Below, one piece after another: positions 23 to 58,869 of a stretch of DNA of 64,000 bases (positions are counted from its first letter, which is position 1; every line of letters starts with the position of its first letter). The notes below the pieces were generated by a model that was not told where the DNA came from, did not search any database, and saw only the letters and a list, made by a program, of their open reading frames with translations. Both the position numbers and the translations under genes were made by a program. The DNA comes from an uncultured Dehalococcoidales bacterium (GTDB taxonomy: Bacteria > Chloroflexota > Dehalococcoidia > GIF9 > UBA5629): contig CAZKOL010000004.1 in NCBI GenBank assembly GCA_964554375.1, positions 16,535 to 80,534 of the forward strand. The letters run 5' to 3'.

Positions 23-54
23 GATTGCTTCGTCGCTGCGCTCCTCGCAATGAC
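23..54 (-). repeat. Copy of a dispersed palindromic intergenic repeat (consensus about GTCATTGCGAGGAGCG-AGCGACGAAGCAATC), here in reverse orientation
   Basis: Near-identical to sequences at 3693-3724 and 3751-3776 (inverted), 12441-12459 and 57662-57689. All copies are intergenic. Confidence 0.6.
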
Positions 55-146
55 GTGACCACCATCAATTCCCATGAAGTTACTTTACCTGCCTGTTTTG
101 TTATAATACGGATTACCCGAAAATTCAGGTTGATCGAGGAGGCGTT

Positions 147-635
147 ATGGAGAACGAAAAAAAGGTCTTCGAGGCCCTGGAAACAGATGCCAGGCTATCA
201 GCCGACCAGATCGCGGAAATGACCGGCGTCCCCGTCCATGATGTGCAAAAAATAATCAAGAAGGCCGAGAAGGACGGCACTATAATCAAGTACAAGACGG
301 TCATCAACTGGTCCAAGCTGGGTGAGGAGCAGGTCTGGGCGCTGGTGGAGGTGAAGGTGGTGCCGCAGCGCGATACCGGATTCGGGGCTATCGCCGAGCG
401 TATATATCGCTTCCCACAGGCCAAGTCGGTCTTCCTGGCATCCGGTACCTACGACCTGGCCATCCTCATAGAAGGCAAGACCATGCAGGAGATCGCCGTC
501 TTCGTCTCCGAAAAGCTGGCGCCCATGGATACCGTCCAGGGCACGATAACGCACTTCATACTCAAGAAATACAAGGAGGACGGCGTCATCTTCGAGGATG
601 ACGGCGAACCACGCCGGCTGGGCGTCGTAGCCTGA
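147..635 (+). CDS. lrp: Lrp/AsnC family transcriptional regulator
   Basis: 162 aa. Has an N-terminal HTH and a C-terminal RAM/AsnC_trans-like domain. Shine-Dalgarno gaggag lies upstream. Confidence 0.85.
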   Translation: MENEKKVFEALETDARLSADQIAEMTGVPVHDVQKIIKKAEKDGTIIKYKTVINWSKLGEEQVWALVEVKVVPQRDTGFGAIAERIYRFPQAKSVFLASGTYDLAILIEGKTMQEIAVFVSEKLAPMDTVQGTITHFILKKYKEDGVIFEDDGEPRRLGVVA

Positions 636-2686: not shown

Positions 2687-3662
2687 TTCTTTTAAGGCCC
2701 ATCTTGAGCTTTACTTCGCCGATGGTCTGACGCGCTATGGCCTGCGCTCGCTGCGCCCCGTCGGCAAGGATATCGTAAATATGCCCGGGGTCCTTCTCCA
2801 GTGTTGATCTCCGCTCACGGAAATCCTTGAGGCTGATGTTGATGCCGGCGGCCAGCAGCTTTTTACAGTCGACGCAGCCTATCCCCGCCACCCTGCACTG
2901 CGCCTCGATCTCTTGAACACGCGACTCGTTGAAAAATTTTTGCAGGCTGAACACGTTGCAGACCTCGGGGTGGCCCGGGTCGTTGCGGCGCTGCCTGGCA
3001 GGATCGGTCATGGCTGTCTTTACCCGCTCCAGCGTCTCATCCGGTGTGGCGGCCAGCTCGATGTGGTTGTTGTAGGACTTTCCCATCTTCTGCCCGCCGT
3101 CAAGGCCGCGCACCATGGGATAATTGGTCAGCCTGGCCTGCGGCTCGGGGAATGTCTCGCCGAAGATGAAATTGAAGCGGCGTACTATCTCCCTCGTCAT
3201 CTCCAGGTGAGGTAACTGGTCCTCGCCTACCGGGACGGCGTCCGATTTATAAAGCATAATGTCGGCGGCCATCAGCACGGGGTAGCCGACCAGGCCGAAA
3301 TTTACGTTCTGCGGCTGCATCCTGGCCTTCTCCTTGAAGGTCGGGACGCGCAGCAGCCAGCCCAGAGGGGTGAGCATGCCCAGCAGGGTGAACAGCTCGG
3401 TAACCTCGGGAACGTGCGACTGCACGAATACAATGGACCTTTTGGGATCGATGCCAGCGGCCAGCCAGTCGAGCGTCATCTCGAAGATGTTCTGCTGTAA
3501 CTCGGAGGTGCTCTCAAGCGTGGTGAGCGCGTGCAGGTCCACTATGCAGTAAATGCAATCATACTCTTCCTGCAGTCGTACATAGTTCTGAATAGCGCCG
3601 ATGTAATTGCCTATGTGCTGCCTGCCGGTGGGGCGCGCGCCGGAGAATACGCGTTTCTTCAT
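2679..3662 (-). CDS. trpS: Tryptophan--tRNA ligase
   Basis: 327 aa class I aaRS. N-terminal PTGRQHIGNYIGA (HIGH-like) and KMGKS (KMSKS) motifs, at the length expected for TrpRS. Confidence 0.9.
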   Translation of the reverse strand: MKKRVFSGARPTGRQHIGNYIGAIQNYVRLQEEYDCIYCIVDLHALTTLESTSELQQNIFEMTLDWLAAGIDPKRSIVFVQSHVPEVTELFTLLGMLTPLGWLLRVPTFKEKARMQPQNVNFGLVGYPVLMAADIMLYKSDAVPVGEDQLPHLEMTREIVRRFNFIFGETFPEPQARLTNYPMVRGLDGGQKMGKSYNNHIELAATPDETLERVKTAMTDPARQRRNDPGHPEVCNVFSLQKFFNESRVQEIEAQCRVAGIGCVDCKKLLAAGINISLKDFRERRSTLEKDPGHIYDILADGAQRAQAIARQTIGEVKLKMGLKRNA

Positions 3663-3692
3663 AACAGGTCAAGAGTTTAACACAAAAATAAT

Positions 3693-3776
3693 GTCATTGC
3701 GAGGAGCGTAGCGACGAAGCAATCTGTTGTTGCCGCCACTCCAGACACAGGATTGCTTCGCTTCGCTCGCAATGAC
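3693..3776. repeat. Inverted pair of the dispersed palindromic repeat (3693-3724 forward, 3751-3776 inverted) forming an ~85-nt hairpin
   Basis: gtcattgcgaggagcgtagcgacgaagcaatc ... gattgcttcgcttcgctcgcaatgac, with other copies at 23-54, 12441-12459 and 57662-57689. Confidence 0.65.
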
Positions 3777-3922
3777 CGGCTTCTTATCTTGTCACCCAAC
3801 TCGTCAAACCTTATTTCATAGCTGGGGGTGACAAGTGTGACGACTTTGCGGGGGGGGGATAACTGTATGTTTATATTCTTTTTCTATTTACCCGCTAATT
3901 TTTCAAACTCACGTATTCAGTC

Positions 3923-5230
3923 TCAGAGGTTCAGTTCACTCTTGTTAAAACATGCAGCTGCGTCTTTGTGTTTACCCATTGCTTTTAATGCCAAACCTTT
4001 GTGATGCCATGCCTCTCCTGTAGTGGAATCAATTTGTATCACCTTATCAAAACATTTTACTGCATCTTTATAATTATGTAATTTGCTCAGTTCTCTGCCT
4101 TTGTTGTACCACGCATCTATATCGCGAGGATTCAACCTAACCGCCTCATCAAAGCACTTGAGCGCGTCAGAATATTTATTAAGGGCGTCCTGGGCAATAC
4201 CCATGTTATACCAGACAATGGCATTTCGATTATTGAACGTAATGGATTTATCAAAGCATGTCACAGCTTCTCTGAAGTTATTTATATTCATAAGTGCCGT
4301 GCCTTTGCTAAACCACGCTTTGCCAAATTCTGGATCAATATTTATGACATGGTTATAGCATTCAATAGCTTCATCATTCTTCTCAAGATGCCTTAATAGC
4401 TCACCTTTTGCATACCATGCTCCTGTGGATTTCGAATCCAACGCGATAGCTTTATCATAACAGCTCGAAGCTTGGTTGTACTCTCCAATACACATTAGGA
4501 CTGTGCCTTTGTTTACCCAGCCACCAATAAATCTCGGCTCTATCTCAATTACTTTACTAAAGCAGTCAATTGCCTTATCGCACATTTTCTTCTGTAAGAA
4601 TTCTGCTCCATTTGTGTTCTGGATCACAGCTTCTTTTGAATTTAAAACATGATAACCACGGCTGGTTTCGCCGTGTTGTATCTTTTGATCCATAGTTAAA
4701 GCGTCATCGTATAAATAATGTGGGATTTCATAAAGCATTAGTATTGTATGCTTCTTATTACAGTCTCCGTTAATTAATACGAGTATCTCTGAAGCAACTT
4801 TTTTCTCCCTATCTTTAGACGTGAAAAGTATTTTCCCGTCCGGCGTAACGATAGTACAAGTAGCCCATGTTAATGCCCATTCAGAATTGCATTTGTGGCA
4901 TTTCCACCACATATTAATATCATTCCATCTATCGGTAGTAATTTTTATGGGCTTGCTGTCTACCACATCAAAAACATCGATAACAGCATATTTATTTTTA
5001 TTAAATATGTCCGGCATACTTTTATTGATTTTTTCAATGTACTGAATCAATGCACAGGGCGGCTTGAAATGATAGGGCTGATTTTTCATCGGTAATATAT
5101 AGTGATAATTATTTTCATCCAATGCAATCCCAACTTCCCAAACAACTGATTGCTTCGCCTCACAATTGAAACATTGCCTTTCAACTTTGGTAGTGAGCCA
5201 TAGAACACTCTTAAATTTCACCTCGTCCAT
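3923..5230 (-). CDS. Hypothetical protein with an N-terminal Cys-rich (CxxC...CxxC) domain and C-terminal TPR repeats
   Basis: 435 aa encoded in low-GC DNA. Contains CFNCE and CHKCN motifs, and the C-terminal half is made of multiple 34-aa TPR-like repeats (W/F..G.....G.Y..A...Y..A). Confidence 0.6.
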   Translation of the reverse strand: MDEVKFKSVLWLTTKVERQCFNCEAKQSVVWEVGIALDENNYHYILPMKNQPYHFKPPCALIQYIEKINKSMPDIFNKNKYAVIDVFDVVDSKPIKITTDRWNDINMWWKCHKCNSEWALTWATCTIVTPDGKILFTSKDREKKVASEILVLINGDCNKKHTILMLYEIPHYLYDDALTMDQKIQHGETSRGYHVLNSKEAVIQNTNGAEFLQKKMCDKAIDCFSKVIEIEPRFIGGWVNKGTVLMCIGEYNQASSCYDKAIALDSKSTGAWYAKGELLRHLEKNDEAIECYNHVINIDPEFGKAWFSKGTALMNINNFREAVTCFDKSITFNNRNAIVWYNMGIAQDALNKYSDALKCFDEAVRLNPRDIDAWYNKGRELSKLHNYKDAVKCFDKVIQIDSTTGEAWHHKGLALKAMGKHKDAAACFNKSELNL

Positions 5231-5299
5231 GTCCGGTTTCCTCCCCTTTCTAAAACGTGCATAATAAGTCGGTGAGCGACATTATTGGCGCTTCACATT

Positions 5300-6070
5300 C
5301 TATTTCAAAGTATCCATTCGTTTTATGATTTCATTTCCTATCGGAATAATTGATACACTGGCTTCGTCTTTAAAGGAAAGCGAGACGGTGAGGATATAAA
5401 CTTGATATTTTTTAAATATCAGGGTGCTATATGTGTAGTCTTCACCATCGATGTTAGTTGTACCTGTAGCATATGCGCATATATCTCCAATCGATGGATG
5501 ACTAACACTAAATGAAGGATCAGTCATCTGAATACTGTATTCAGTAGCACTTTTACGTAGGTATTTCAGCATATAATCCTTGAATTGTTTGTCGTCTTTA
5601 AGCAGTCCATCATAATAGGCTTGTTCTAAAAATCCACTGGCCTTTATTACAACACTATAAATTACTTGATAAGGTTCATTAGATATAAATAATTGGATTC
5701 CGCTTGCTCCTGTTCCAAGATCTGCAATTTTCTCAGGAGCAAATATCTGGGCAGCGTCTGTTTTGAGGAATCTTGGCGGTAGATTTTCAGCCATGTTTAG
5801 AATATACGGTGCATCGGATAAAGCGATTTTTGAACTTGTGACCGCTGAATTAATAATGATAGCCAATATCACGACGACTGCAATTAATATGATAATTAGT
5901 GCGCGCTTGGATACTATAAACAAGGTCTTTTGCCTCGGAGGTGCAGGCTGATATTCAGCGTCCTCTATTGGCCAAGTTAATTGGACACCGCACTTATCAC
6001 AAATTTTACCCCCCGGCATGACTGGCAGGCCACAACGCGGACATATATAAGTGTGCTGCATTTTATCCAA
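5300..6070 (-). CDS. Zinc-ribbon membrane-anchored protein (N-terminal CPRCG..CDKCG, single TM, extracytoplasmic domain)
   Basis: 256 aa. A zinc ribbon is followed by the hydrophobic segment LIIILIAVVVILAIII, in low-GC DNA. Confidence 0.55.
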   Translation of the reverse strand: MDKMQHTYICPRCGLPVMPGGKICDKCGVQLTWPIEDAEYQPAPPRQKTLFIVSKRALIIILIAVVVILAIIINSAVTSSKIALSDAPYILNMAENLPPRFLKTDAAQIFAPEKIADLGTGASGIQLFISNEPYQVIYSVVIKASGFLEQAYYDGLLKDDKQFKDYMLKYLRKSATEYSIQMTDPSFSVSHPSIGDICAYATGTTNIDGEDYTYSTLIFKKYQVYILTVSLSFKDEASVSIIPIGNEIIKRMDTLK

Positions 6071-6162
6071 TAATAGTTAAAACCTATTGATAATTAATAT
6101 GTCATATACGCGCTATAATCACAGGGAATTGCGCCATCACAAGTATTTTTCCTGTGGGTTCA

Positions 6163-7161
6163 TCATTGTCCCAATTCCGCCGCCTTTTTAAAATCTGCTT
6201 CGGCTTTGCTCTTATCGCCTATTTTATTATATGAAAGCCCACGGTTGTAGTAAGCGTTGGCAAAATTCGGTCTTAATTCTATGGCTTTAGTGCAATCGGC
6301 TATGGAATGGTTGTATTCATTCATAAAAAAATAACTATTCGCACGATTGTAGTATGCTGCTGCATACTTCGGGTTCAGTTCTATTGCTTTAGTGAAATCA
6401 GCTATGGCTTCGTTGCAGCCTCTTAATTTATAGCAAAGTCCACGGTTGTTGAATACTTCTGCATCATTCGGGTTTAGTTCTATTGCTTTGTTTAAATCAA
6501 CTAGAGCTTTGTCACGGTCATTTTGTCGATAATATACATTCCCACGGCCACTATAAGCATCAGCATTATTCGGGTTTAGCGCTATTGCCTTGTTGTAATC
6601 AGAAATAGCTTTGTCATAGTCACCTTTTTTATAATAGGAAAGCCCACGATTGAGGTAAGCGATGGTAGGATCCGGGTCTATCTCTATTGCCTTGGTGAAA
6701 TCAACTATGGCTTTATCATATAGTCCTTCTTTGCCATAGGCCAGCCCACGACCTTGGTAAGCCATGGCATCCTTCGGGTCCAGTCCTATCGATGTAGTAA
6801 AATCAGTAATAGCGTTGTCGTAGTTACCAATGTCACTATAGGCACGCCCGCGCCCGCAGTAAGCCTGGGCATATTTCGGGTCTATATCAATCGCCTTATT
6901 GTAATCAGCTATAGCTTTGTCGTATTCACCTTTGACAGCATAGGAGACACCACGGTAGAAGTAAGCAACAGCATCTTGCGGGTTTAGCGCTATTGCTTTT
7001 GTGTAATTGTCAACGGCCTGGTCCCATTGATTGGGCCCGTTATTTATGCAACTTAAAAGCAACATTACTGTGGCAAGGAAAGCACATACGGTAATTGTAA
7101 TTATTCTCTTGTATTTCATAATTTCCTCTATGTCATGCCTTTTGTTAATTTTGTTGCTCAT
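6163..7161 (-). CDS. TPR-repeat lipoprotein
   Basis: 332 aa. Has a signal peptide with the lipobox LLLSC, followed by about 8 tandem TPR repeats (AYxxRGxxYxxxGxYDKAIxDxxKAIELNP). Its start overlaps the upstream gene by 4 bp (ATGA). Confidence 0.7.
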   Translation of the reverse strand: MSNKINKRHDIEEIMKYKRIITITVCAFLATVMLLLSCINNGPNQWDQAVDNYTKAIALNPQDAVAYFYRGVSYAVKGEYDKAIADYNKAIDIDPKYAQAYCGRGRAYSDIGNYDNAITDFTTSIGLDPKDAMAYQGRGLAYGKEGLYDKAIVDFTKAIEIDPDPTIAYLNRGLSYYKKGDYDKAISDYNKAIALNPNNADAYSGRGNVYYRQNDRDKALVDLNKAIELNPNDAEVFNNRGLCYKLRGCNEAIADFTKAIELNPKYAAAYYNRANSYFFMNEYNHSIADCTKAIELRPNFANAYYNRGLSYNKIGDKSKAEADFKKAAELGQ

Positions 7162-7613
7162 GGTTTATTCTCTTGTCTTGTCATTTCGGATGAGTTTGTT
7201 ATTTGCGCCTGGGTTTTCGATGTCTTTTTATTACTTAGAATAATTGAAATAATCGGGAAAAATAAGGCCAACCAAAGCCAATTTAAACTCCTGCCTTTTT
7301 GATGTAATACCCATCCATTTACAGGTAACATAGCCCAGCACAGAAAGTAGGTTGAAGCATTTTTTGCTGTTCCAACAATGTCGAATCCCAGAAATGTTCT
7401 TAAGAAAGCAATAAAAAAACAAAAACCGAGGAGCCAGAACAACCATGTTAGATTCAAGTGTTTCTTAAACCAGGATGTTTCTACGGTTTTTGATTGTTTA
7501 CTATTTACAACTACGGGTATATTACCTTGGCATCCACAATCATCTGCATAACCCATAAATTCCCTTCCGCACTTCGAGCATGTTCTGTTTATCATCCTAT
7601 TCTTCCTCCCCAT
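7158..7613 (-). CDS. Zinc-ribbon multi-pass membrane protein
   Basis: 151 aa. N-terminal CSKCG...CGC zinc ribbon followed by 3-4 predicted TM helices. Confidence 0.5.
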   Translation of the reverse strand: MGRKNRMINRTCSKCGREFMGYADDCGCQGNIPVVVNSKQSKTVETSWFKKHLNLTWLFWLLGFCFFIAFLRTFLGFDIVGTAKNASTYFLCWAMLPVNGWVLHQKGRSLNWLWLALFFPIISIILSNKKTSKTQAQITNSSEMTRQENKP

Positions 7614-7633
7614 TTGTAGTAAAATGCTGAAGT

Positions 7634-8098
7634 TTATTTGGCTTTACTAAATAGTTTTTTTGGAAAATCAGTATCGCCTATTTTATAAGTTAGTTGGCCA
7701 TCACTTCCTATTACGGCGTATTTCTCTCTGGGTGACCTGGCCACGGTAACCCATTTGCTTTTCTCATTGTCTCCGATAAACATTAGTTTTGCTAACTCCT
7801 GGAAGCTCAGGCAGCATATACCATCTTCACCACATACCAACCCAATAAAGACATCATTAACCCCCTTCTTAACTTCAGTAAGTTCTTTGATATGTTCCGG
7901 TGCAAAAGTGAAACCCCAGGGAGTTAGACGCTTTTTACAATGCTTGATATGGAGATAGACCGTGCTATTGATCAAATAGCCGTTGTTACCTGTAAATAGC
8001 TTTATTGATTCCGGTTTTCCATCTTGAATCAGACGTACCAGTGCAATGCCATGATAAGTTTTATAGTTATCCATTCGCTTTTTGACATAAATTTTCAT
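7634..8098 (-). CDS. Hypothetical protein, possible effector partner of the Z1 ATPase
   Basis: 154 aa ORF whose start overlaps the 3' end of the upstream Z1-ATPase gene by 32 bp. No recognisable motifs. Confidence 0.45.
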   Translation of the reverse strand: MKIYVKKRMDNYKTYHGIALVRLIQDGKPESIKLFTGNNGYLINSTVYLHIKHCKKRLTPWGFTFAPEHIKELTEVKKGVNDVFIGLVCGEDGICCLSFQELAKLMFIGDNEKSKWVTVARSPREKYAVIGSDGQLTYKIGDTDFPKKLFSKAK

Positions 8099-9926
8099 AG
8101 ATTTTAATATTCTCCGCGTACCAATACACTACACGTGATTGGTTCATCGTATTACGTAAAATCATGAAATGATGAAGTGCGCGTGGATATTGCTTTAAAT
8201 CTTTGCCTCCAAATACATTTCTCTGCCTAATTAAATTGTTATGATAATCCGTATCTGCCTCTTGAATTGGCCGTATCTCATGTATTGCGATGTATCCTGC
8301 ATGCGGTTTTGTATTGATTCTAATGAAGTCAATTATGTATTCCGGCAGAACCTCATCGCCGAATTCCTTATTGATTTTTTCTAATTTACCTATCTCATCA
8401 ATGATACGGTCGTGGATTATTTCCTCAATTCTATTTGAATACTTGAAGACTGCGAATAACATCTCGCCTTCTTTTAGAACCACCGCTCTTTTATCTATGC
8501 TACCTGACGCGGCCGGCGTGATTCGATTGTCAGCAAGCCAGATGGGTGCACCTCTTTTTGTCTTTATAGCTTGTAGTGACAGATAATGATATACAAAACA
8601 CCTGTGCCAATCCGCATATAATGTTTTTGGTATAGATAATTCAAATAGATCCAGATATCCCTTCCGATTTCCAAACATTCTTGCTCTTTGTATATAAGTA
8701 TCTTGCTGTATTCGATGCTTGGCATCCCTGGTGAAAAACATGCTTAATAGGTTATTGATTGTGATGCCTCTTGATATCATATTGCCACCGATTATTATCG
8801 TAAATAGAGACGGTGGTTCAGTCGTGATCATGCTGCTTTTTTTCTGGTAATTCATGACCTCAACAAATTTTTTCCCCAGATGGCTGATCACAAATTCTAC
8901 TATCTTATCAGCAGTTTTTTCGCCATATTTATTATTTGCAGTCTCCCAAAGTCGTCTAATGTATTTATCTCGTTGCTGGTCGCCATTGTCATTTAAGATG
9001 CGTAGAACGTCAGATACCACTTTTTTATCTTTGTCATGAGCATCTGTTTTTCCACTTGTGTGGATTAGAAAACAGCATTTAACATCGTCATGAAGAGCTG
9101 TTGTCATTTTATTCTTAATATTTTCATCAATATTGACGTACCCGACATTTACTATAAATCTTAATAATGCATCTATAAGGTATTTAGGATCGTCCCCTGT
9201 ATCCTTCAAAGGTACTAATGAATAATGCAGTGGTACCGTCAGGTCAATGGGAAAGAATTCATTTTTACCCACATAGTATTCGTGTGGTTCAAAGCACAGC
9301 CAGTTCTTTGAAATATTGTCGAAAGTATTATTTAAGTCTATTCGCGCCGGTGTAGCAGTAACGCCTACATAAATTCCATTGTTATCGAGTAGCTTGTTTA
9401 TTTCATCGTTTATCCTGCTTCTCTCATTTTTATTTATTTTTGAATTAGGAGAGGCGAAGTCAGCTTCGTCGTCAATGACAACCTTGCCGCGTTTGTTGCG
9501 CAGATATTCATTTAATTTCTTTAAAACGTTAGCGTTTTTCCTCGAAAATATAATGCATCGGTCGTCAACCATTTTCGGATCAGTAACAGAAATAATATCA
9601 ACCGGTGTCGGATCTATGTCCGAATCTTGAAATCGCTTCAGATTTTGTTCCAATAACGGGATAGTGTCATTTATTAGAATTACTATGTTTTTGTGTCCAA
9701 GGTCTTGCAGTTTCGAGGTTAAAGCGACCATCATTTCAGTTTTACCACTTTGCGGCTCACCATATATTACAAATGACTTGGCACCCGATTCCAAATTACC
9801 TACGGCTTCCATAACCGTTTTTTCGATGTGTTCTGTGTTCTTTCCTCTGTTACGTAATGCGTTGATATGTCTGTCGTATCTATCGGCATCAGAAGTTAGA
9901 TCTTTGAATTTGTTAATATCGAACAT
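8067..9926 (-). CDS. Z1-domain SF2-helicase-like ATPase (defence-island associated)
   Basis: 619 aa. Walker A VIYGEPQSGKTEM, Walker B VVIDDEADFASP, motif III GVTATPARI, and a C-terminal IIIGGNMISRGITINNL segment typical of Z1-domain proteins. AT-rich codon usage. Confidence 0.7.
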   Translation of the reverse strand: MFDINKFKDLTSDADRYDRHINALRNRGKNTEHIEKTVMEAVGNLESGAKSFVIYGEPQSGKTEMMVALTSKLQDLGHKNIVILINDTIPLLEQNLKRFQDSDIDPTPVDIISVTDPKMVDDRCIIFSRKNANVLKKLNEYLRNKRGKVVIDDEADFASPNSKINKNERSRINDEINKLLDNNGIYVGVTATPARIDLNNTFDNISKNWLCFEPHEYYVGKNEFFPIDLTVPLHYSLVPLKDTGDDPKYLIDALLRFIVNVGYVNIDENIKNKMTTALHDDVKCCFLIHTSGKTDAHDKDKKVVSDVLRILNDNGDQQRDKYIRRLWETANNKYGEKTADKIVEFVISHLGKKFVEVMNYQKKSSMITTEPPSLFTIIIGGNMISRGITINNLLSMFFTRDAKHRIQQDTYIQRARMFGNRKGYLDLFELSIPKTLYADWHRCFVYHYLSLQAIKTKRGAPIWLADNRITPAASGSIDKRAVVLKEGEMLFAVFKYSNRIEEIIHDRIIDEIGKLEKINKEFGDEVLPEYIIDFIRINTKPHAGYIAIHEIRPIQEADTDYHNNLIRQRNVFGGKDLKQYPRALHHFMILRNTMNQSRVVYWYAENIKIYENLCQKANG

Positions 9927-10191
9927 TTTGTGCTCTTTGTATAATTAGCTTTCTCGACTTATTATGAATGCAATAACTTCGTAAATTGTCTACACCGATC
10001 TGCGCAGGATTATATAACTCTTTTTATAACTACGCAATACTATTAATGTTCTAAACCCGTCAATACCCTATAAGACCCTGACAAACCCCTTTTTAACAGT
10101 CTAAATATGCTGACGCGGCTGTCAATGGCTATGTATTTACTTGAAAATGCACAACGTGAGGGTAACTACGACCTGGCAGCCCTGGCCGTTC

Positions 10192-10462
10192 CTACATGCC
10201 GTCGAGCGCAGTCACTCCCATGAGGTGGAGCGCCCTGGCCAAGACTATTTGTGCGGCCATCACCAGCTTCAGCCTGGCAGCCGTAAGGTCCGCATCTTCC
10301 GAGATGACGCGGCACTGCTCATGGAAAGGACTGTAAGACCGTGTCCAGGTCCTGGGCGTAGAAAGGCAGGTGATGCAGCTGGTGTGACAGCGCAACTGTC
10401 TCGATTATCTCCAGCATCCTGGCCATGCTGCGTATCAGCGCCAACTGGGGCTCCTCAATCAG
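10192..10462 (-). pseudogene. Duplicated, diverged 3'-terminal fragment of argS (about 90 codons), the left direct repeat of the integration signature
   Basis: Translation [43 protein letters not shown] parallels the ArgS C-terminus [43 protein letters not shown] encoded at 12484-12753. Nucleotide similarity extends across 10085-10462 versus 12226-12753. Confidence 0.75.
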
Positions 10463-10469
10463 GTTTCAT

Positions 10470-12143
10470 CTATTTCACAATCGTTATCTGCCGTGGATCG
10501 GTCGCTATAATGCACGGAGCCCCCTTGTAACGGTCGATTTTCCCCAGAACCCTCACATTATTATCCATATAGGTAAACACGTCAGGGAATTTCTTGAAGT
10601 CCTGGATATTGATGACCACCCTGAAATCAGTTCCGCACTGTCCCTGTTTCCAAGCGTCGTAGTTGTTACAATGTTGATTCGGATTATCAAAATATAGCAA
10701 CATGGGTCGGGTTTCTACGTCCCAGGCACTGGCATATTCAACAACTGACCCTTCGATAGCTACTTCCTTGCCCAAATATTTGTTTATTTTTTCTAAGTCT
10801 AAAGCAGAAATTGTCGTTTCCGGTTTAATAGTTATCTCGGCCATTGTTGGCGCCTTTAGTTTCTCGGCCAATTCGTAGGGCACTTTCCCCCAGTTTGGTG
10901 ATCCATCAGCATAGTTGTTATTAATAATCCTTGTTACGTTGCTTCCATCTGCATCCATGGTATATATTTGCCATGCGTTTTTAAAGCGAATACCGAAATC
11001 CAATGGTTTACCATCTCTATCCGATACGAATGCTATCTTTTTGCCATCGGGTGACCATTCCGACCAATCGTTAAACTGACCATGTCCACCAATATTTTGC
11101 GCTTGAGTTAAATTTATTTGATGACTTCCATCAGAATTCATAACATAAATATCGTAAATTTCGGTATTTACATCTTTTTTAGAACTTAGGTAGGCTATTT
11201 TGCTGTCATCAGGAGAGTATGCTCCACCTCCGTCCCAGGTGACATATTGCGATGTCAAAGTTTTAATGCTTTTCATCAGTGGATTTGAATTTGGATCGAA
11301 CAATGACGTACTAGTGCGTGCTGGTTTGAGAACCAATCTGTTACCTGTATATGACCACGATTCACCGGAATAGTTGTCTGGAGTGGAGTTGAAAATAATC
11401 TGCTTGACCATATCGTAATCTATGTCAATTTCCCACAAACTATATCCACCATCGCCCAAAGTATTACATATCAGCTTTTTCCCATCACGTGACCATTTTG
11501 GCCATGAATACGCTTCTGGCGTTGTAGTAATTTTCAAGAATTTGGTTCCCTCTGCATTCATAACCCAAATGTGACCGTAATTTGAATGTGTAGAACAAAA
11601 TACAATCATAGTGCCATCCGGTGACCAACTGGGCATGCTATCCCATTTAAGACTGCCAGTGAGATTCTTGACATTTCCACCATCTACATCCATAACGAAA
11701 ATATCCCAGTTGTTATCTCCTTTATTATCAGGTTCCCATTTTCTGTCTGAGACGAATAATATCTTTTTCCCATCAGGTGACAAACTGGGTATTAAATCCA
11801 TATCTGAGTTATTTGTTAAGTTCACCTGGTTATTACCGTCTGGATCCATGATATAGATTTCATAATTATTCCCAGATAACACATTCCAGCCTTTTGCCCA
11901 GTCCCACTGCCACGTGGCATCGCGCAACGACCAGAATACGATTTTCTCCTGATATTCTGGATTCTGTGGCAAAGCGGCCGGTTTAGTCAGAGTCTTATTA
12001 TCAACCTCGGTCGGGGATTGGGGTTTTATTGATTGATTATCAACAACAACCGGTAGGGGAGTCTTAATACCAGGTGTACAACTTACAAAAATTGTAATAA
12101 TAACCAATAATGAAACGGCTATAACGACTGACATTTTAACCAT
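10470..12143 (-). CDS. TolB-like beta-propeller (PD40-repeat) lipoprotein with an uncharacterised C-terminal domain
   Basis: 557 aa. Signal peptide/lipobox FVSC, a Pro/Gln-rich linker, repeated SPDG/SWSPDGK PD40 motifs, and low GC content. Confidence 0.7.
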   Translation of the reverse strand: MVKMSVVIAVSLLVIITIFVSCTPGIKTPLPVVVDNQSIKPQSPTEVDNKTLTKPAALPQNPEYQEKIVFWSLRDATWQWDWAKGWNVLSGNNYEIYIMDPDGNNQVNLTNNSDMDLIPSLSPDGKKILFVSDRKWEPDNKGDNNWDIFVMDVDGGNVKNLTGSLKWDSMPSWSPDGTMIVFCSTHSNYGHIWVMNAEGTKFLKITTTPEAYSWPKWSRDGKKLICNTLGDGGYSLWEIDIDYDMVKQIIFNSTPDNYSGESWSYTGNRLVLKPARTSTSLFDPNSNPLMKSIKTLTSQYVTWDGGGAYSPDDSKIAYLSSKKDVNTEIYDIYVMNSDGSHQINLTQAQNIGGHGQFNDWSEWSPDGKKIAFVSDRDGKPLDFGIRFKNAWQIYTMDADGSNVTRIINNNYADGSPNWGKVPYELAEKLKAPTMAEITIKPETTISALDLEKINKYLGKEVAIEGSVVEYASAWDVETRPMLLYFDNPNQHCNNYDAWKQGQCGTDFRVVINIQDFKKFPDVFTYMDNNVRVLGKIDRYKGAPCIIATDPRQITIVK

Positions 12144-12282
12144 TCTTCTGCCTCCATAGATCTCCGATACTATAGTTTAGGTTATCCGTCATAACAATGC
12201 CACTATGCGAGTGCCCCACCCGACCCTGACAAAACCCCCTTTTTTAATGCGCACAAATGTACTATTATGGTAGTCAACGGCC

Positions 12283-12400
12283 ATGTCTTTACTTGAAAAA
12301 GCGCTACGGGAAGGTAATTACGAGTTGGCGGCTCTGACCATCGTCTACGGCATGCTCAGAGTGTTACATGATAGAAAAGAAGCAGAAAGGGGCCCCCCAG
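12283..12400 (+). other. Small ORF/conserved segment (MSLLEKALREGNYELAAL...) that is part of the duplicated attachment-like region; a diverged copy begins at 10125
   Basis: The two copies share MxxLLExAxREGNY(D/E)LAAL. Coding status is uncertain. Confidence 0.25.
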
Positions 12401-12483
12401 GGGCAACCAGAACGCCCGGAGGCACGGGTTCTACAGCTTTTGCTTTCGTTCGCAATGACGGGGTGAGGAGGGGCCGGCGCGTC

Positions 12484-14142
12484 CTACATCTTATCCGGCG
12501 CGGTCATGCCCATCAGGTGTAGCGTCCTGGCCAGGACTATTCTTGCGGCCAGTACGAGCTTCAGCCGGGCGGCGGTCAGGTCCGCGTCTTCCGAGATGAC
12601 GCGGCACTGTTTATAGAAGGAATGAAAGACCGTGGCCAGGTCCTGGGCGTAGAAGGTCAGGTGATGGGGCTGGTGTGACAGCGCGACGGTCTCGATGATC
12701 TCAGGCATTTTGGCCATGCTGCGTATCAGGGTCAACTCCGGCTCCTCAATCAGCAGGCTTGTATCGCCGTTGGCGAAGTCGATCCCTTTCTCCGCTGCGT
12801 TGCGCAGGATGCTGCTGATGCGCGCGTGCGCGTACTGCACATAATAGACCGGGTTGTCGGCGGACTGCTTTATGGCCAGCTCCAGGTCGAAGTCCATCTG
12901 GCTATCAGCCGAGCGCGACAGGAAAACGAAGCGGCAGGCATCGGGGCCGACCTCCTCCAGCAGCTCGCGCAGTGTGATGATATCGCCGCTCCTTTTGGAG
13001 ATTTTAACCGCCTCTTTGCCGCGCCTCAGTGTGACAAGCTGGCAGATGATGATCTCGAGCCTTTCGGAGTCGATGCCCAGCGCTCCCAGCACTACCTTCA
13101 TCCGCTGGACATGGCCCTGGTGATCAGCCCCCCAGATGTCGATGACATTGTCGAACTTCCTCACGGCGAACTTGTCGTAGTGATATGCAATATCGGAGGC
13201 AAAATAGGTGGGTGTACCATCGGAGCGCACCAGGACATTATCCTTGTCCTCTCCCAGGGTGGAGGAGGTGAACCAGGTGGCATTCTCCCTTTCTGCTATA
13301 TAGCCACCGTCCCTCAGCATGCGCATCGTGTCGTCATACCGGCCGCTCTTGAACAGGCTTTGCTCGCTGAACCACTCATTGAAGGTTACGCCCAGCGTTT
13401 CAAGGTCCTGCCTGATCTGCTGCATCTCCCTCTCTATCCCGATCTGACCGATCTCCGCCACGGCGCGCTCCTCAGGCAGGCCGGCGTATTTATCTCCGTA
13501 TTGCTTAACGAGTTCCCTGGCCAGGTCTACGAGATAGCTGCCGTGATACCCGTTGGCCGGTACCTCGACCTCCTTTCCCAGGGCCTGCAGGTAGCGTGCA
13601 TACAATGACCGGTGGAAAGCCTCGAGCTGGCTGCCGGCATCATTTATGTAATATTCCGTTGAAACCCTGTAGCCGGCCGCTTTAAGGACGTTGGCCAGCG
13701 TGCTGCCCAGCACGGCCCCCCGCCCATGTCCCACGTGAAGGGGCCCGGTGGGATTTCCGCTGACGAACTCAATCTGGATGCTTTTGTCCTCAAGTTGTAT
13801 GTTGCCGTAAGCCTCGCCTGCCCGGCAGATGGCGTCCACCTGGCGGTTCAGCCATTTTTTACTCAGCGTAAAGTTGATAAACCCCGGCGGCGCCGCAGCA
13901 ACCTTCTCTAAATCGCTGTCCGGTGACATGTGATCAACTATGGCAGCGGCCACGTCCATGGGCTTCATCCCGGTCAGCCGCGCCAGCTTGAGTGGCAGGC
14001 TGCTGGCATAGTCTCCGTGTTCCGGCCTGGCAGGCCTCTCGATTGTTATCTCCGGCAGGCTGGAGTTACCCACCAGGCCTTTTTCGCCAGCCATGGCAAA
14101 GGCCTGCTCCAGCATTTCAGCCAGCCGTTTTTTAAAAATCAT
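12484..14142 (-). CDS. argS: Arginine--tRNA ligase
   Basis: 552 aa class I aaRS with HVGHGRG (HIGH) and KISKRSG (KMSKS) motifs, plus an N-terminal Arg-tRNA-synthetase add-on domain. Confidence 0.92.
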
Positions 14143-55636: not shown

Positions 55637-57607
55637 ATGGAATCATTTATCAGGTTAAATCCTATCGCTCTTTCGCTGGCAATACCCGCCCTGATATCGG
55701 GTAGTCTGGCTGCGTATGCTTTCACCCGGCGCCCGGTCGTGGGTTCGCGGGTCTTTGCCTTCCTCATGCTGGCTTTATGCGTGTGGTCCGTTTTTTATGG
55801 GGTGGAGCTGTCCTGCCTGCAACTCCAGGGAATGCTGATCAGCGCTGTGCTGGAATACATTGGGATTGCCGCCGTACCCGTGCTTTTCCTGATTTTAACG
55901 CTGGTATACACGGGAAGGGAAGAATGGGTGACCCAAAGGACTATCATCCTGCTTTTCGTAATACCCTTTATAACCATAGCAATGGTAGCCACTAACCATC
56001 TGCATTACTTTTATTACAGCACAACCAGCGTGGATACCGGCGGCCCATTTCCCATGATAGCGCTCACCAGGGGGCCGTGGTTTTGGGTACATTCTGTTTA
56101 CTCTTATGCCGCGCTTCTGGCAGCCACCTTTTTACTGATCGCAAGGATGGGGAAACCGGGTACTATGTTCCGCAAACAGGTAATAGCCATGCTGGTCGGA
56201 TTGTGCGCGCCCTGGACTGTGAATATCCTTTATGTGGCTGTCGGCCTGATGCCCTTTGGACACCTGGATCTAACGCCTTTTGCTTTTACCGTCACCGGTG
56301 TGGTGATCGCCTGGAGTATGTTCAGTCATAGTCTTTTCGACATTGTGCCCATGGCCTACGATAAGGTTGTCGATAGCATTGATGATGCCATCCTAGTGCT
56401 GGACAGGCGGAAAAGGATCGTGGAGTACAACAGGGCGGCCCGTGAAATCTTGGAATTATCCCAGGCCGATATAGGACAGTCCGTAGCAATTGTCTGGAAG
56501 GATAGGCCGGATTTATTGAAGCTGAGCGAGGCGGATGAGTCAAACCGTATCGAAATTGTATCCGGCCTGCGGGATTCGATTCGTTATTACGAGGCCTCCG
56601 CCTACGATGTGGAAGACAGGCACAGACGCCCTATAGGTAAAACCATATCGCTGCATGACACCACTGACAAGAAAAAGGCGGAGGAGGCGTTGCGGCAGAG
56701 CGAGGAAAAATACCGCACCCTTGTAGAGAATATCAACGACGTCTTTTACACACTTGATAACCAGGGGACCATTACCTATGTCAGCCCGGTAGTTGAGCGC
56801 TTAAGCAAGTACAAGGTCAGTGACTTAATAGGAAAACCTTTTACCTGCATTGTTTACCCGGATGACCTGCCGGGCCTTTTAGACAGTTTCAACCGCCTGG
56901 TGTCCGGTCAACTGGAACCGTGGGAGTTCCGCGCCCTGGATAAGGACGGCAGGATCATATTTGTGCGTACCTCCAGCCGGCCTATCTATGAAGATGGAGA
57001 GATCGTGGGTATCACAGCCCTGATAACGGATATTACAGAGCAAAAGAGGTTGGAGCAAGAACTCGTAAAAATGGCCACCCATGACTTCCTCACAGGGTTG
57101 CCAAACAGGGTATTGCTGATCGACCGTTTTAAAATGGCGGCAGCGCTGGCTCACCGCAACAAAGCCAGGCTTGCCATCATGTCGTTGGATCTGGATAAGT
57201 TAAAATCCATCAATGATACCCTCGGTCACGCTGTCGGAGATCAGGTGCTTAAGCTTAGCGGTATGCGGCTAACGGGCATAATTCGTGCCAGCGACACGCT
57301 AGCCCGAATTGGAGGAGACGAGTTCGTTCTGGTGATGCTGGAGACCCATCATATGGAAGATGCCACTGCTATAGCCCAAAAAATCCTGGATTCCTTTAAA
57401 GAGCCGTTATTGATCGAAGATCATCAGCTGCATTTGTCCACCAGCATAGGTATCGCTATATATCCCGAAGATGCAAAAGACCTGGAAACCCTGATTAAAA
57501 AATCCGATGCCGCACTGTATTACTGCAAAGGTCACGGCCGCAACCAGTTCAAATTCTTTGGCGACGGCGATGTCCGGTTTGAAGAAGATCGCGAAAACGC
57601 CACCTGA
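55637..57607 (+). CDS. Membrane sensor diguanylate cyclase (multi-TM sensor + PAS + GGDEF)
   Basis: 656 aa. About 7 N-terminal TM helices, a PAS region, and GGDEF motif RIGGDEFVLV. Confidence 0.85.
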   Translation: MESFIRLNPIALSLAIPALISGSLAAYAFTRRPVVGSRVFAFLMLALCVWSVFYGVELSCLQLQGMLISAVLEYIGIAAVPVLFLILTLVYTGREEWVTQRTIILLFVIPFITIAMVATNHLHYFYYSTTSVDTGGPFPMIALTRGPWFWVHSVYSYAALLAATFLLIARMGKPGTMFRKQVIAMLVGLCAPWTVNILYVAVGLMPFGHLDLTPFAFTVTGVVIAWSMFSHSLFDIVPMAYDKVVDSIDDAILVLDRRKRIVEYNRAAREILELSQADIGQSVAIVWKDRPDLLKLSEADESNRIEIVSGLRDSIRYYEASAYDVEDRHRRPIGKTISLHDTTDKKKAEEALRQSEEKYRTLVENINDVFYTLDNQGTITYVSPVVERLSKYKVSDLIGKPFTCIVYPDDLPGLLDSFNRLVSGQLEPWEFRALDKDGRIIFVRTSSRPIYEDGEIVGITALITDITEQKRLEQELVKMATHDFLTGLPNRVLLIDRFKMAAALAHRNKARLAIMSLDLDKLKSINDTLGHAVGDQVLKLSGMRLTGIIRASDTLARIGGDEFVLVMLETHHMEDATAIAQKILDSFKEPLLIEDHQLHLSTSIGIAIYPEDAKDLETLIKKSDAALYYCKGHGRNQFKFFGDGDVRFEEDRENAT

Positions 57608-57661
57608 TTTTTCCACTGAATCCCATAAACCGGATTTTTCTTTTCAGTCTCCTCTTGACCG

Positions 57662-57689
57662 GTCGTTGTGAGCGAGGCGAAGCAATCTG
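57662..57689 (+). repeat. Copy of the dispersed palindromic repeat (gtcgttgtgagcgaggcgaagcaatctg)
   Basis: Matches the consensus seen at 3693-3724. Lies between the GGDEF gene and hisC. Confidence 0.5.
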
Positions 57690-57777: not shown

Positions 57778-58869
57778 ATGCTTAACGCAAACGATGTCGA
57801 AAAAATGATTCGCGCCGGCCTTAAAGGCATGAAGGCCTATACTCCCGTCGATCCCGTCGAGGTGCTTACTGGCCGCGCCGAAGTGCCGGCTGGTGAGACC
57901 GCCAAGCTGGATGGTAATGAGAACCCATACGGCTGCTCGCCGCGGGTGCAAAAGGCGCTGGCTAAATTCCAGGACTATAACAGGTACCCGGACCCCGACC
58001 AGCGGATAGTACGTAAGGCGCTGGCCGGGTACTCTGGCGCAGTAGCAGAGTCCATCGTGGCCGGCGCCGGCAGCGATGACCTCATCGACATTATCCTGCG
58101 ATTATTTATCGAGCCGGGAGACCGGGTGATTAACTGCCCGCCCACCTTCGGCATGTACCCGTTTTGCACCGTGATCACGGGAGGGGAGGTCATCAAGGTG
58201 CCGCGCAGGGCAGATTTCTCACTCGACCTTCCCGCGGTGAAAAAGTCGATTAATGCCACAACAAAGATCATCTTCATTGCATCGCCCAATAACCCCAGCG
58301 GCAATCAGGCTGGCGAAGCGGAGATAAAAGAGCTGCTTTCCATGGGCCTGATGGTGGTGGTCGACGAGGCCTATGTCGAGTTCAGCGGCAATTCTCTGGC
58401 GCCGCTGGTTCCTCAATACGCCAATCTTATTGTTCTGCGCACCTTCAGCAAGTGGGCCGGAATAGCAGGCCTGAGAGCTGGCTATGGCATCTGCCCGATC
58501 AATATCGTCCCGTATATGATGAAGATAAAACAACCCTACAACATCAACATGGCCGCCTATGTTGGCATACTGGAATCGCTGGCCGACATCGAGTACCTGC
58601 AGAAGACCGTCAGGGCGTTGATTAATGAGCGGGACGTGCTTTACAAGGTCCTGCAGCAGTTCAAGTGGCTCAAGCCCTATCCTTCCCAGGCCAACTTCAT
58701 CCTCTGCGCCGTGCTCGGCCGCAGCGCCAAAGACATCTACCTGAAGCTGCAGAAAAAGGGCATATTCATACGCTATTTCGAGACGCCCGAGCTAAAAGAT
58801 TACATCCGTATCAGCGCAGGGCGCCCGCAGGATACGGCCCGTGTAATTGCCGCGCTCAGGGATATGTGA
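57778..58869 (+). CDS. hisC: Histidinol-phosphate aminotransferase
   Basis: 363 aa class II aminotransferase with a PLP-Lys in FSKWAG. Confidence 0.88.
   Translation: MLNANDVEKMIRAGLKGMKAYTPVDPVEVLTGRAEVPAGETAKLDGNENPYGCSPRVQKALAKFQDYNRYPDPDQRIVRKALAGYSGAVAESIVAGAGSDDLIDIILRLFIEPGDRVINCPPTFGMYPFCTVITGGEVIKVPRRADFSLDLPAVKKSINATTKIIFIASPNNPSGNQAGEAEIKELLSMGLMVVVDEAYVEFSGNSLAPLVPQYANLIVLRTFSKWAGIAGLRAGYGICPINIVPYMMKIKQPYNINMAAYVGILESLADIEYLQKTVRALINERDVLYKVLQQFKWLKPYPSQANFILCAVLGRSAKDIYLKLQKKGIFIRYFETPELKDYIRISAGRPQDTARVIAALRDM

Follow-up and report, generated by a model that had tools for sequence, protein, structure and literature searches.

The DNA analysed here is a 64-kb stretch of the genome of an uncultured Dehalococcoidales bacterium (referred to as the window), which contains, in the gaps between its genes, five copies of a short hairpin repeat. 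These units belong to the hairpin class of CGTC-tagged repetitive extragenic palindromes (REPs) and Ssn-related motifs (SRMs, among them the Neisseria Transformation Sequence, NTS), and their partner is, with a probability of roughly 0.8 as judged from sequence comparisons, a nuclease of the Ssn family. The link between such repeats and GIY-YIG genes is already published (PMC11893778); what is new here is a family of sequences with a split stem within this known and recently characterised class. The units have a defined anatomy, both of their helices are backed by covariation, and this exact family, which is widely distributed, physically flanks genes for Ssn homologues.

Ssn proteins (cd10448) are single-domain GIY-YIG proteins that act as site-specific endonucleases on single-stranded DNA (ssDNA) (Chenal et al., Nat Commun 2025, PMC11893778). 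SsnA of Neisseria meningitidis binds the hairpin repeat NTS (CGTCATTCCCGCGMAVGCGGGAATCYRG) solely as ssDNA and on one strand, and cuts a few bases upstream of it; four Ssn proteins, three from Neisseria and one from Wolbachia, were shown not to use double-stranded DNA, RNA or the opposite strand as substrates. The three bases preceding the palindrome matter most for cutting by SsnA and the C just past the palindrome most for binding, and the NTS loop can be deleted or extended. SRMs flank 71% of Ssn homologues in a repeat-gene-repeat layout like that of an insertion sequence (IS), with 29% lacking the motif, and the Neisseria Ssn/NTS pair lowers transformation by repeat-carrying DNA (PMC11893778).

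A hairpin unit with a split stem

The core of the unit is yGTC-ATTGC-GAG-[variable mini-hairpin]-CGAA-GCAAT-C, abbreviated for the family as ATTGCGAG...CGAAGCAAT and also written GTCATTGCGAG...CGAAGCAATC. It is composed of an unpaired pyrimidine-GTC tag, which gives the unit its orientation, an outer stem, a purine-rich internal loop (GA on the 5' side and GAA on the 3' side), a G-C pair, the mini-hairpin and a trailing C. The 'palindrome' of one unit therefore consists of the 5-bp ATTGC/GCAAT outer stem plus the mini-hairpin, with no long perfect stem. Across 348 copies, (C/T)GTC, ATTGC, GAG, CGAA, GCAAT and C are fixed, and the middle region of 3-15 nt varies in sequence and is almost always self-complementary, with an inner stem of 1-6 bp and loops of mostly 3 nt; units measure 24-36 nt. 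Two forms are common: a short one, GAG-[hairpin]-CGAA (the short unit being GTCATTGCGAGCGAAGCGAAGCAATC), and a long one with an extra GA...GA layer, GAG-GA-[hairpin]-GA-CGAA. The search pattern fixed GTC itself, ended at GCAAT and left the base preceding GTC free; 376 of 393 units (96%) have C or T at this position, a C directly follows GCAAT in 387 of the 393, and the tail reads CCA, CTC or CCC in 37%, 30% and 11% of units, respectively.

Both helices are real, as indicated by covariation. For the inner helix, 308 closing pairs are found in 148 distinct inner regions, compared with 72 +/- 9 in shuffles (maximum 98 in 1000), and these regions include 42 different inner stems of at least 2 bp. 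For the outer stem, both sides co-vary in sibling families, which occur as bystanders in the same loci and retain GTCA, GAG and CGA (ATTGC/GCAAT, ATTCT/AGAAT, ATTCC/GGAAT, ATCCT/AGGAT, ATCGC/GCGAT, ATTAC/GTAAT and others); a control with a non-complementary outer-stem partner gave a single match. The inner loop is GAA, GCA, GTA or GGA in about 60% of copies, with C-G as the closing pair in 88 of 130, and a C-GNA-G mini-hairpin is unusually stable in ssDNA. We read this motif as a probable stable DNA mini-hairpin and the conserved GA/GA(A) as putative tandem sheared G.A pairs. A hammerhead-like core (GAG-hairpin-CGAA) was rejected because the invariant CUGAUGA is absent, and K-turn and loop E were ruled out on geometry as identities of the internal loop.

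Among published repeats, SRM/NTS shares with the unit an oriented 5' (C/T)GTC, a hairpin starting with AT, a conserved C past the palindrome and a variable, extendable loop, as well as many intergenic copies, often in inverted pairs, and the flanking of ~95-aa single-domain GIY-YIG genes in a repeat-gene-repeat arrangement. The fixed and variable positions of the unit mirror the determinants of SsnA binding and cutting (PMC11893778), which supports its placement in the SRM class. The two differ in shape: SRM/NTS has a perfect 8-bp stem and a 4-nt loop, and in the unit a GA/GAA internal loop separates the 5-bp outer stem from the variable mini-hairpin, for the most part a GNA triloop with a C-G closing pair.

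The second published group, the CGTC-tagged REPs, was described as a superfamily present in 5 phyla, with a CGTC/TGTC tag, a stem starting A-T, T-A, a tail near CCA, 'HH' dimers and no associated transposase (Di Nocera 2013, PMC3733652). The unit has the same tag, AT-starting stem, CCA-like tail and HH dimers with common heterodimers, is likewise mostly intergenic and without a transposase, and is also abundant in Alphaproteobacteria (Bradyrhizobium, Sphingomonadales). The families CGTC-1 to CGTC-4 have 8-9 bp stems and 4-5 nt loops (PMC3733652), and because this geometry differs from the split stem, the unit is filed in the superfamily and in none of these four families. Their supplement peptide signatures (VIPAKAGI, VIAGLDPAI, VIPWLDHGI and others) do not cover the ATTGC/GCAAT unit. 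This separation is drawn from the described geometry and the supplement signatures, and a Bradyrhizobium family with 'loops of different length' may include the unit. Integron attC sites, CRISPR and uptake sequences were rejected as identities, given that there is no R-box, no regular spacing apart from one 4-copy array in locus L043, and no species specificity.

Ssn genes between inverted units

Clustering of the proteins encoded within 1.5 kb of units at 240 loci gave no enriched family and no transposase-like family, and returned open reading frames (ORFs) that translate the repeat itself together with phage structural genes; the GIY-YIG gene was missed in this clustering because it is too rare. 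It surfaced when the ORFs between inverted units 250-2500 bp apart were listed, and in L186 a 96-aa GIY-YIG gene lies exactly inside a dimer. In 2.9 Mb of loci fetched via the repeat or via tryptophanyl-tRNA synthetase (TrpRS), all five GIY-YIG homologues are flanked by units, each by a different repeat family, and one of them lies in a locus fetched via TrpRS and not via a repeat. A further sample comprised 29 viral loci picked by GIY-YIG homology alone. Here, a GTCA-headed inverted pair encloses or abuts the gene in 23 of the 29 loci according to a strict detector (10-nt GTCA-headed inverted arms) and in 27 by eye, compared with 2 pairs in the distal parts of the same loci and 0.1 pairs per kb in unrelated loci; a detector requiring a perfect 6-bp stem from the A was too strict and missed most families. 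Finally, the GIY-YIG genes reached via 8 protein-database look-ups are all flanked by units (9/9). The arrangement also recurs in named genomes: N. gonorrhoeae (dRS3/NTS units), A. lipoferum 4B, N. aromaticivorans pNL2, S. meliloti and Planktothrix agardhii. In A. lipoferum 4B, a full dimer stands on each side of the gene.

Eight independent loci have Ssn homologues flanked by the ATTGCGAG...CGAAGCAAT family itself (L186, L242, L341, L342, L356, L357 with two genes, L358/L359 and L373). The two ends of the arrangement in L357 are formed by one short and one long unit, like the dimer in the window. At positions 601-1326 of the same locus, two ssn genes lie in tandem, each preceded by a short unit and followed by a long one in inverted orientation, a layout that points to duplication of the whole repeat-gene-repeat unit. 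The flanked proteins are about 95 aa long with a single PF01541 domain, and their alignment (A1) shows no variation at the catalytic Y, Y and E, the residues mutated in SsnA; one protein from an ATTGC-flanked gene, P0040 of L357, shares 53% identity with the N. gonorrhoeae homologue that NTS units flank. The protein family is large, with 14,568 clusters at 50% identity (E <= 1e-3), and its nearest solved structure is that of the UPF0213 protein 1ZG2. Many Ssn homologues in databases are 120-170 aa long and carry N-terminal extensions, which are probably read-through of the flanking unit. Gene callers also frequently take the repeats for coding sequence, which yields peptides such as SLRGAKRRSNP, DCFASLAMT, RHCEE... 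and LLRFARNDG.

In the model proposed here by homology, the strand reading GTCATTGC... would become single-stranded and form a hairpin that is bound by a small (~95 aa), stand-alone Ssn GIY-YIG nuclease, and this enzyme, encoded elsewhere in the genome, would cut that strand a few bases to the 5' side of the tag. The source genome would encode a cognate Ssn that cuts the ATTGC/GCAAT variant. A relative with 68% TrpRS identity (L315) has an Ssn homologue flanked by the sibling ATTCTGGAG family. Candidate roles in the cell include the restriction of incoming ssDNA, as in Neisseria, the spread of the repeats and the formation of recombination hot spots; we infer both the role of the repeats in the organism and their mode of multiplication.

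Several observations weigh against Ssn as the partner. The published SRM string, HGTCWYN(0-2)YYVSBRHN(0-5)WNVSBRGN(0-2)RNCYNB, matches the canonical NTS used as positive control, none of the 393 family units and no site in the window. The stem is split by an internal loop, as opposed to the perfect stems of 8-9 bp that have been published (PMC3733652), and this shape lies outside the substrates assayed for Ssn. Single units are predicted to be weakly stable (about -2.5 kcal/mol, z near 0, in nearest-neighbour models). Moreover, a jackhmmer search detected no ssn gene within the 64-kb window, so that the cognate enzyme is presumed, and two of the five window copies are decayed and probably inert. 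As for the string, it was built manually as a search tool and not as a definition, according to its authors (PMC11893778), and because the family flanks Ssn homologues yet is matched in 0 of 393 units, it is best regarded as a member of the class that the string misses. A more far-reaching proposal is that the ATTGCGAG-[hairpin]-CGAAGCAAT family constitutes a structurally distinct specificity class of Ssn substrates, missed entirely by the SRM string. We regard this as tentative and on the unlikely side; if true, the cognate enzymes would read a non-Watson-Crick DNA fold.

Copies in the window, inverted dimers and distribution

The copies in the window, with the spacer of the one inverted dimer, are as follows.

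23 to 55, minus strand: intact long-form unit, CGTC-ATTGC-GAG-GA-[GC GCA GC]-GA-CGAA-GCAAT-C; singleton, 92 nt upstream of the Lrp/AsnC gene (147-635, plus strand)
3692 to 3724, plus strand: intact long-form unit, left arm of the inverted dimer, TGTC-ATTGC-GAG-GA-[GC GTA GC]-GA-CGAA-GCAAT-C
3725 to 3750, no strand: dimer spacer of 26 nt, whose ends TGT.. and ..ACAGG lengthen the arm-arm pairing
3751 to 3777, minus strand: intact short-form unit, right arm of the dimer, GGTC-ATTGC-GAG-[C GAA G]-CGAA-GCAAT-C
12441 to 12461, minus strand: decayed unit without inner hairpin, CGTCATTGCGAACGAAAGCAA; ends GCAAA, 23 nt past the argS stop codon
57661 to 57687, plus strand: decayed short-form unit, GGTC-GTTGT-GAG-[C GAG G]-CGAA-GCAAT-C; 5' half of the outer stem mutated, between ORFs 55637-57607 and 57778-58869

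Three copies are thus intact (23-55 minus, 3692-3724 plus, 3751-3777 minus) and two decayed (12441-12461 minus, 57661-57687 plus). A first-pass annotation of the window had named five copies of a dispersed, REP-like palindromic family, all intergenic, and all five are present at or within 1-3 bases of the positions it gave, each between genes (5/5). It had also ascribed an internal ATTGC/GCAAT stem to every copy, which is true of the three intact ones; the copy at 57662 reads GTTGT...GCAAT and that at 12441 ends in GCAAA. The pattern GTCATTGCGAG-N(4-16)-GAAGCAATC matches the window at 23-54 (minus), 3693-3724 (plus) and 3751-3776 (minus), and has 0 matches in 100 dinucleotide-preserving shuffles. 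A profile hidden Markov model trained on 148 distinct units, all from other genomes, recovers the intact copies with E-values of 2.5e-10 (3692-3724), 5e-10 (23-55) and 2e-7 (3751-3777) and the decayed ones with 0.007 (57672-57688) and 0.17 (12450-12461), and finds nothing else convincing over the 64 kb; a match at 5148-5162 (E = 0.08) lies within a TPR gene and is probably due to chance. The tags of the five copies are CGTC, TGTC, GGTC, CGTC and GGTC, and C follows GCAAT in all four copies that retain GCAAT. The genes around them, encoding an Lrp/AsnC regulator, an aminotransferase, TrpRS, a TPR protein and arginyl-tRNA synthetase (ArgRS), form an ordinary chromosomal neighbourhood.

The window dimer is a heterodimer of a short and a long unit, located between the stop of the TPR gene (3923) and the start of trpS (3662). 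As the first-pass annotation had proposed, the pair at 3693/3751 forms a long hairpin, of about 90 nt, with a predicted folding energy of -24.7 kcal/mol as DNA (z = -4.4) and -39.7 kcal/mol as RNA (z = -4.0). In other genomes, about half of the units stand in forward-then-reverse dimers and about half are singletons, and rare head-to-tail arrays of at most 4 copies with 4-12 nt spacers are also observed (L043 2695-2818, L019 5117-5172, L018 28-101); the suggestion that pairs might always be inverted does not hold there. With a strict pattern, the forward-then-reverse order predominates 39:1. With a relaxed partner, 93 dimers were found in other genomes, many of which pair a short with a long unit; 50 of the 93 have spacers of 23-29 nt, a modal range that includes the 26 nt of the window, and the spacer ends are complementary (CCAG...CTGG, CCAT...ATGG, CTC...GAG).

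The position of the units raises the question of whether they act in RNA, as a terminator, an mRNA 3'-end stabiliser or an RNase processing site. E. coli REPs stabilise upstream mRNA, and the units here also occupy short spacers, with median distances of about 33 nt from the upstream gene end and about 35 nt to the next start, in which a dimer would make the strong RNA hairpin given above. Against this, in co-directional gene contexts 45 units lie on the same strand as the genes and 31 on the opposite strand; the lack of a strand preference relative to genes fits a function at the level of DNA rather than on the transcript and is compatible with one-strand cutting of ssDNA by a cognate Ssn. 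In half of the transcripts, moreover, the purines of the conserved internal loop would appear as pyrimidines. A T-run (at least 4 T within 15 nt downstream) accompanies 17 of 393 units (4%), and a terminator scan of 3600-3960 predicted none at the window pair, so that the terminator function offered by the first-pass annotation is not borne out. No Rfam family reached its gathering score on either strand anywhere in the 64 kb, with no tRNA or other described RNA family detected, and a relaxed-threshold scan of 3640-3840 gave chance-level matches alone (E >= 0.27). SsnA, in addition, does not bind RNA (PMC11893778). An RNA-level element is therefore improbable, and the dimer hairpin may influence mRNA decay as a side effect. 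Of the three functions that had been put forward for the repeat, a protein-binding site is the best supported, to judge from the SRM-like anatomy and the flanking of Ssn genes by the family in other genomes.

The repeat had also been taken for a genome-specific class, which is contradicted by its distribution. The unit pattern, with an identical 20-nt core, is present in at least 120 stretches of IMG/VR viral contigs and at least 120 stretches of one-genome-per-species bacterial contigs, with more than 10 phyla among the matches listed. These matches include Bradyrhizobium, Sphingomonas, Novosphingobium, Rhodospirillales, Rickettsiales, Gammaproteobacteria and Desulfobacterota; Pedobacter, Mucilaginibacter, Flavobacterium, Prevotellaceae, Chloroflexus, Anaerolineales, Microcoleus and Melainabacteria; and Patescibacteria, Planctomycetota, Ignavibacteria, Sporomusa and Helicobacter rodentium. 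The ATTGC/GCAAT family alone thus reaches more phyla than the 5 reported for the CGTC superfamily and, in comparison with SRM/NTS, spans Chloroflexota, Patescibacteria, Planctomycetota, Cyanobacteriota, Bacteroidota and others as well as tailed-phage contigs. The only plasmid records with units are large chromid-like replicons (Novosphingobium, Methylobacterium, Methylosinus) and a single plasmid, of 241 kb, from the cyanobacterium Aulosira; the units are rare among cultured-phage records and absent from 5,426 complete E. coli genomes. Close relatives carry about 85 units per Mb, and the 64-kb window has 5 copies. A literature search for the literal sequence of the unit gave no match.

The viral occurrences include a real phage contig, L013, with genes for a portal, a major head protein, a head-tail adaptor, a neck protein and a tail fibre, and six units in the tiny gaps of this operon. 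More generally, tailed-phage structural operons (L013 3339-12744; L002, L019, L033) carry 3-6 units in short gaps, in one orientation per contig, which is antisense to the genes in L013 and sense in L002. In L013, an ATG inside GCAATGAC is apparently the start of the ORF at 5482-5874. Singleton copies within one viral contig tend to be co-oriented, with 63 same-strand and 27 opposite-strand pairs, whatever the direction of the genes.

The argS-trpS spacer and the spread of the repeats

The spacer between argS and trpS, in which the window dimer lies, was compared with that of 80 relatives fetched via TrpRS. The dimer is present in L254, L256, L257, L259, L260, L263 and L265 (85-94% TrpRS identity), and in L248, L251, L252, L258, L261, L264, L266 and L267 the spacer is empty or holds GTAG-tagged REPs. 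Between orthologous dimers, the mini-hairpin shows paired changes (GC-GTA-GC versus GCC-GCA-GGC and GCC-TTA-GGC), and the break of synteny in L253 and L272 falls within a unit. Many relatives have trpS immediately after argS; in the window, about 8.7 kb (3780-12440, with TPR, repeat-protein, PD40 and other genes) separate the two genes, a stretch with a decayed unit at its argS end and the dimer at its trpS end. Because relatives with 93-100% TrpRS identity differ strongly upstream of trpS, this spacer can be regarded as a rearrangement hot spot.

Two further features of this part of the window may be recorded. At 6229-7007, six tandem units of about 102 nt (61-71% identity) lie within a 332-aa ORF (6163-7161, minus strand), which presumably encodes a repeat-domain protein. 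The segment 10121-10462 is a partial duplicate (79-87% identity) of the argS 3' end plus about 65 nt downstream (12273-12753), 2.2 kb away, and adjoins a PD40 beta-propeller gene (10470-12143, minus strand). The true argS copy has an extra 140 nt (about 12340-12481), including the decayed unit, that are absent from the duplicate (alignment A2); this layout resembles an insertion that brought its own replacement for the 3' end of the gene.

The GTAG-tagged REPs of the relatives are of two types, GTAGGGGCGGGTTTAAAAACCCGCCC and GTAGGGGTGCACCTTCAGGTGCACCC, which occur upstream of trpS in L248, L252, L258, L263, L268 and L269, with GTAGGGGTGCACCTTCAGGTGCACCC three times in tandem in L263; neither type is found in the window. 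Their presence in the same spacer, together with the similar look of the units, i.e. short intergenic palindromes in spaced inverted dimers with many heterodimers, would fit classical REPs served by a REP-associated tyrosine transposase (RAYT) of the IS200/IS605 type, as is the case for the GTAG-tagged REPs of E. coli and Pseudomonas. The REPIN-RAYT system indeed follows the same logic, with hundreds of short palindromes, inverted doublets, one or few small nuclease genes flanked by their own repeats, and recognition of an ssDNA hairpin, but it differs in its GTAG tag (versus yGTC), in its HUH/Y1 transposase (versus GIY-YIG) and in the strong hairpins of REPIN monomers (versus the weak single unit). 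It is a GIY-YIG nuclease gene that actually adjoins the units, the neighbour clustering gave no enrichment of any transposase-like family, and E. coli, which is rich in RAYT-type REPs, lacks the units in all 5,426 genomes. Furthermore, Di Nocera et al. reported no RAYT flanked by CGTC repeats (PMC3733652). A RAYT as the partner is thus very improbable.

A different question is how the copies multiply. The inverted dimer may be a miniature non-autonomous transposon (similar to a REPIN or to MITEs, miniature transposable elements with inverted repeats), mobile and copied in trans by Ssn or another enzyme, with no function for the host. This overlaps with Ssn as the partner, as it concerns copy multiplication and not what binds the units, and the same hypothesis was raised in the discussion of the Ssn study (PMC11893778). 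The unit-gene-unit layout is IS-like, and gene-less dimers share both ends with it and have complementary spacer ends; the dimer at 3692-3777 is most likely a gene-less relative of an IS-like unit-ssn-unit arrangement with the same two ends, as its sequence suggests. Mobility would also account for the argS-trpS dimer being present in some close relatives and absent in others, for insertions that come between the two genes of a conserved pair, such as sufB/sufC in A. lipoferum 4B, and for the copies inside tailed-phage structural operons. On the other hand, 68 of 74 dimers have no flanking direct repeat, so that, of the two MITE hallmarks, terminal inverted repeats and a target-site duplication, inverted ends alone are seen. 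Ssn is known to cut, with no known strand-transfer or rejoining activity, the filled and empty sites are too diverged to give exact insertion boundaries, and the window holds no near-identical copies with different flanks. We give this explanation a substantial minority share, below an even chance.

With Ssn as the preferred partner, the repeats of the window are best annotated as Ssn-type hairpin repeats, and not as a terminator, a riboswitch or a genome-private repeat. In this lineage they mark the rearrangement-prone argS-trpS spacer, in which gene order breaks between close relatives. In phages, co-orientation of the units combined with the one-strand cutting by Ssn could mean that a host Ssn restricts phage ssDNA intermediates; alternatively, phages may tolerate sites only on a strand that is never exposed. 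As the SRM string is blind to a very abundant family, present in many phyla, whose units flank Ssn genes, surveys based on this string undercount Ssn-repeat pairs. The family offers a compact and naturally diverse set of candidate pairs of ssDNA nuclease and substrate, with a different substrate shape, which is relevant to the ssDNA tools proposed by the authors of the Ssn study.

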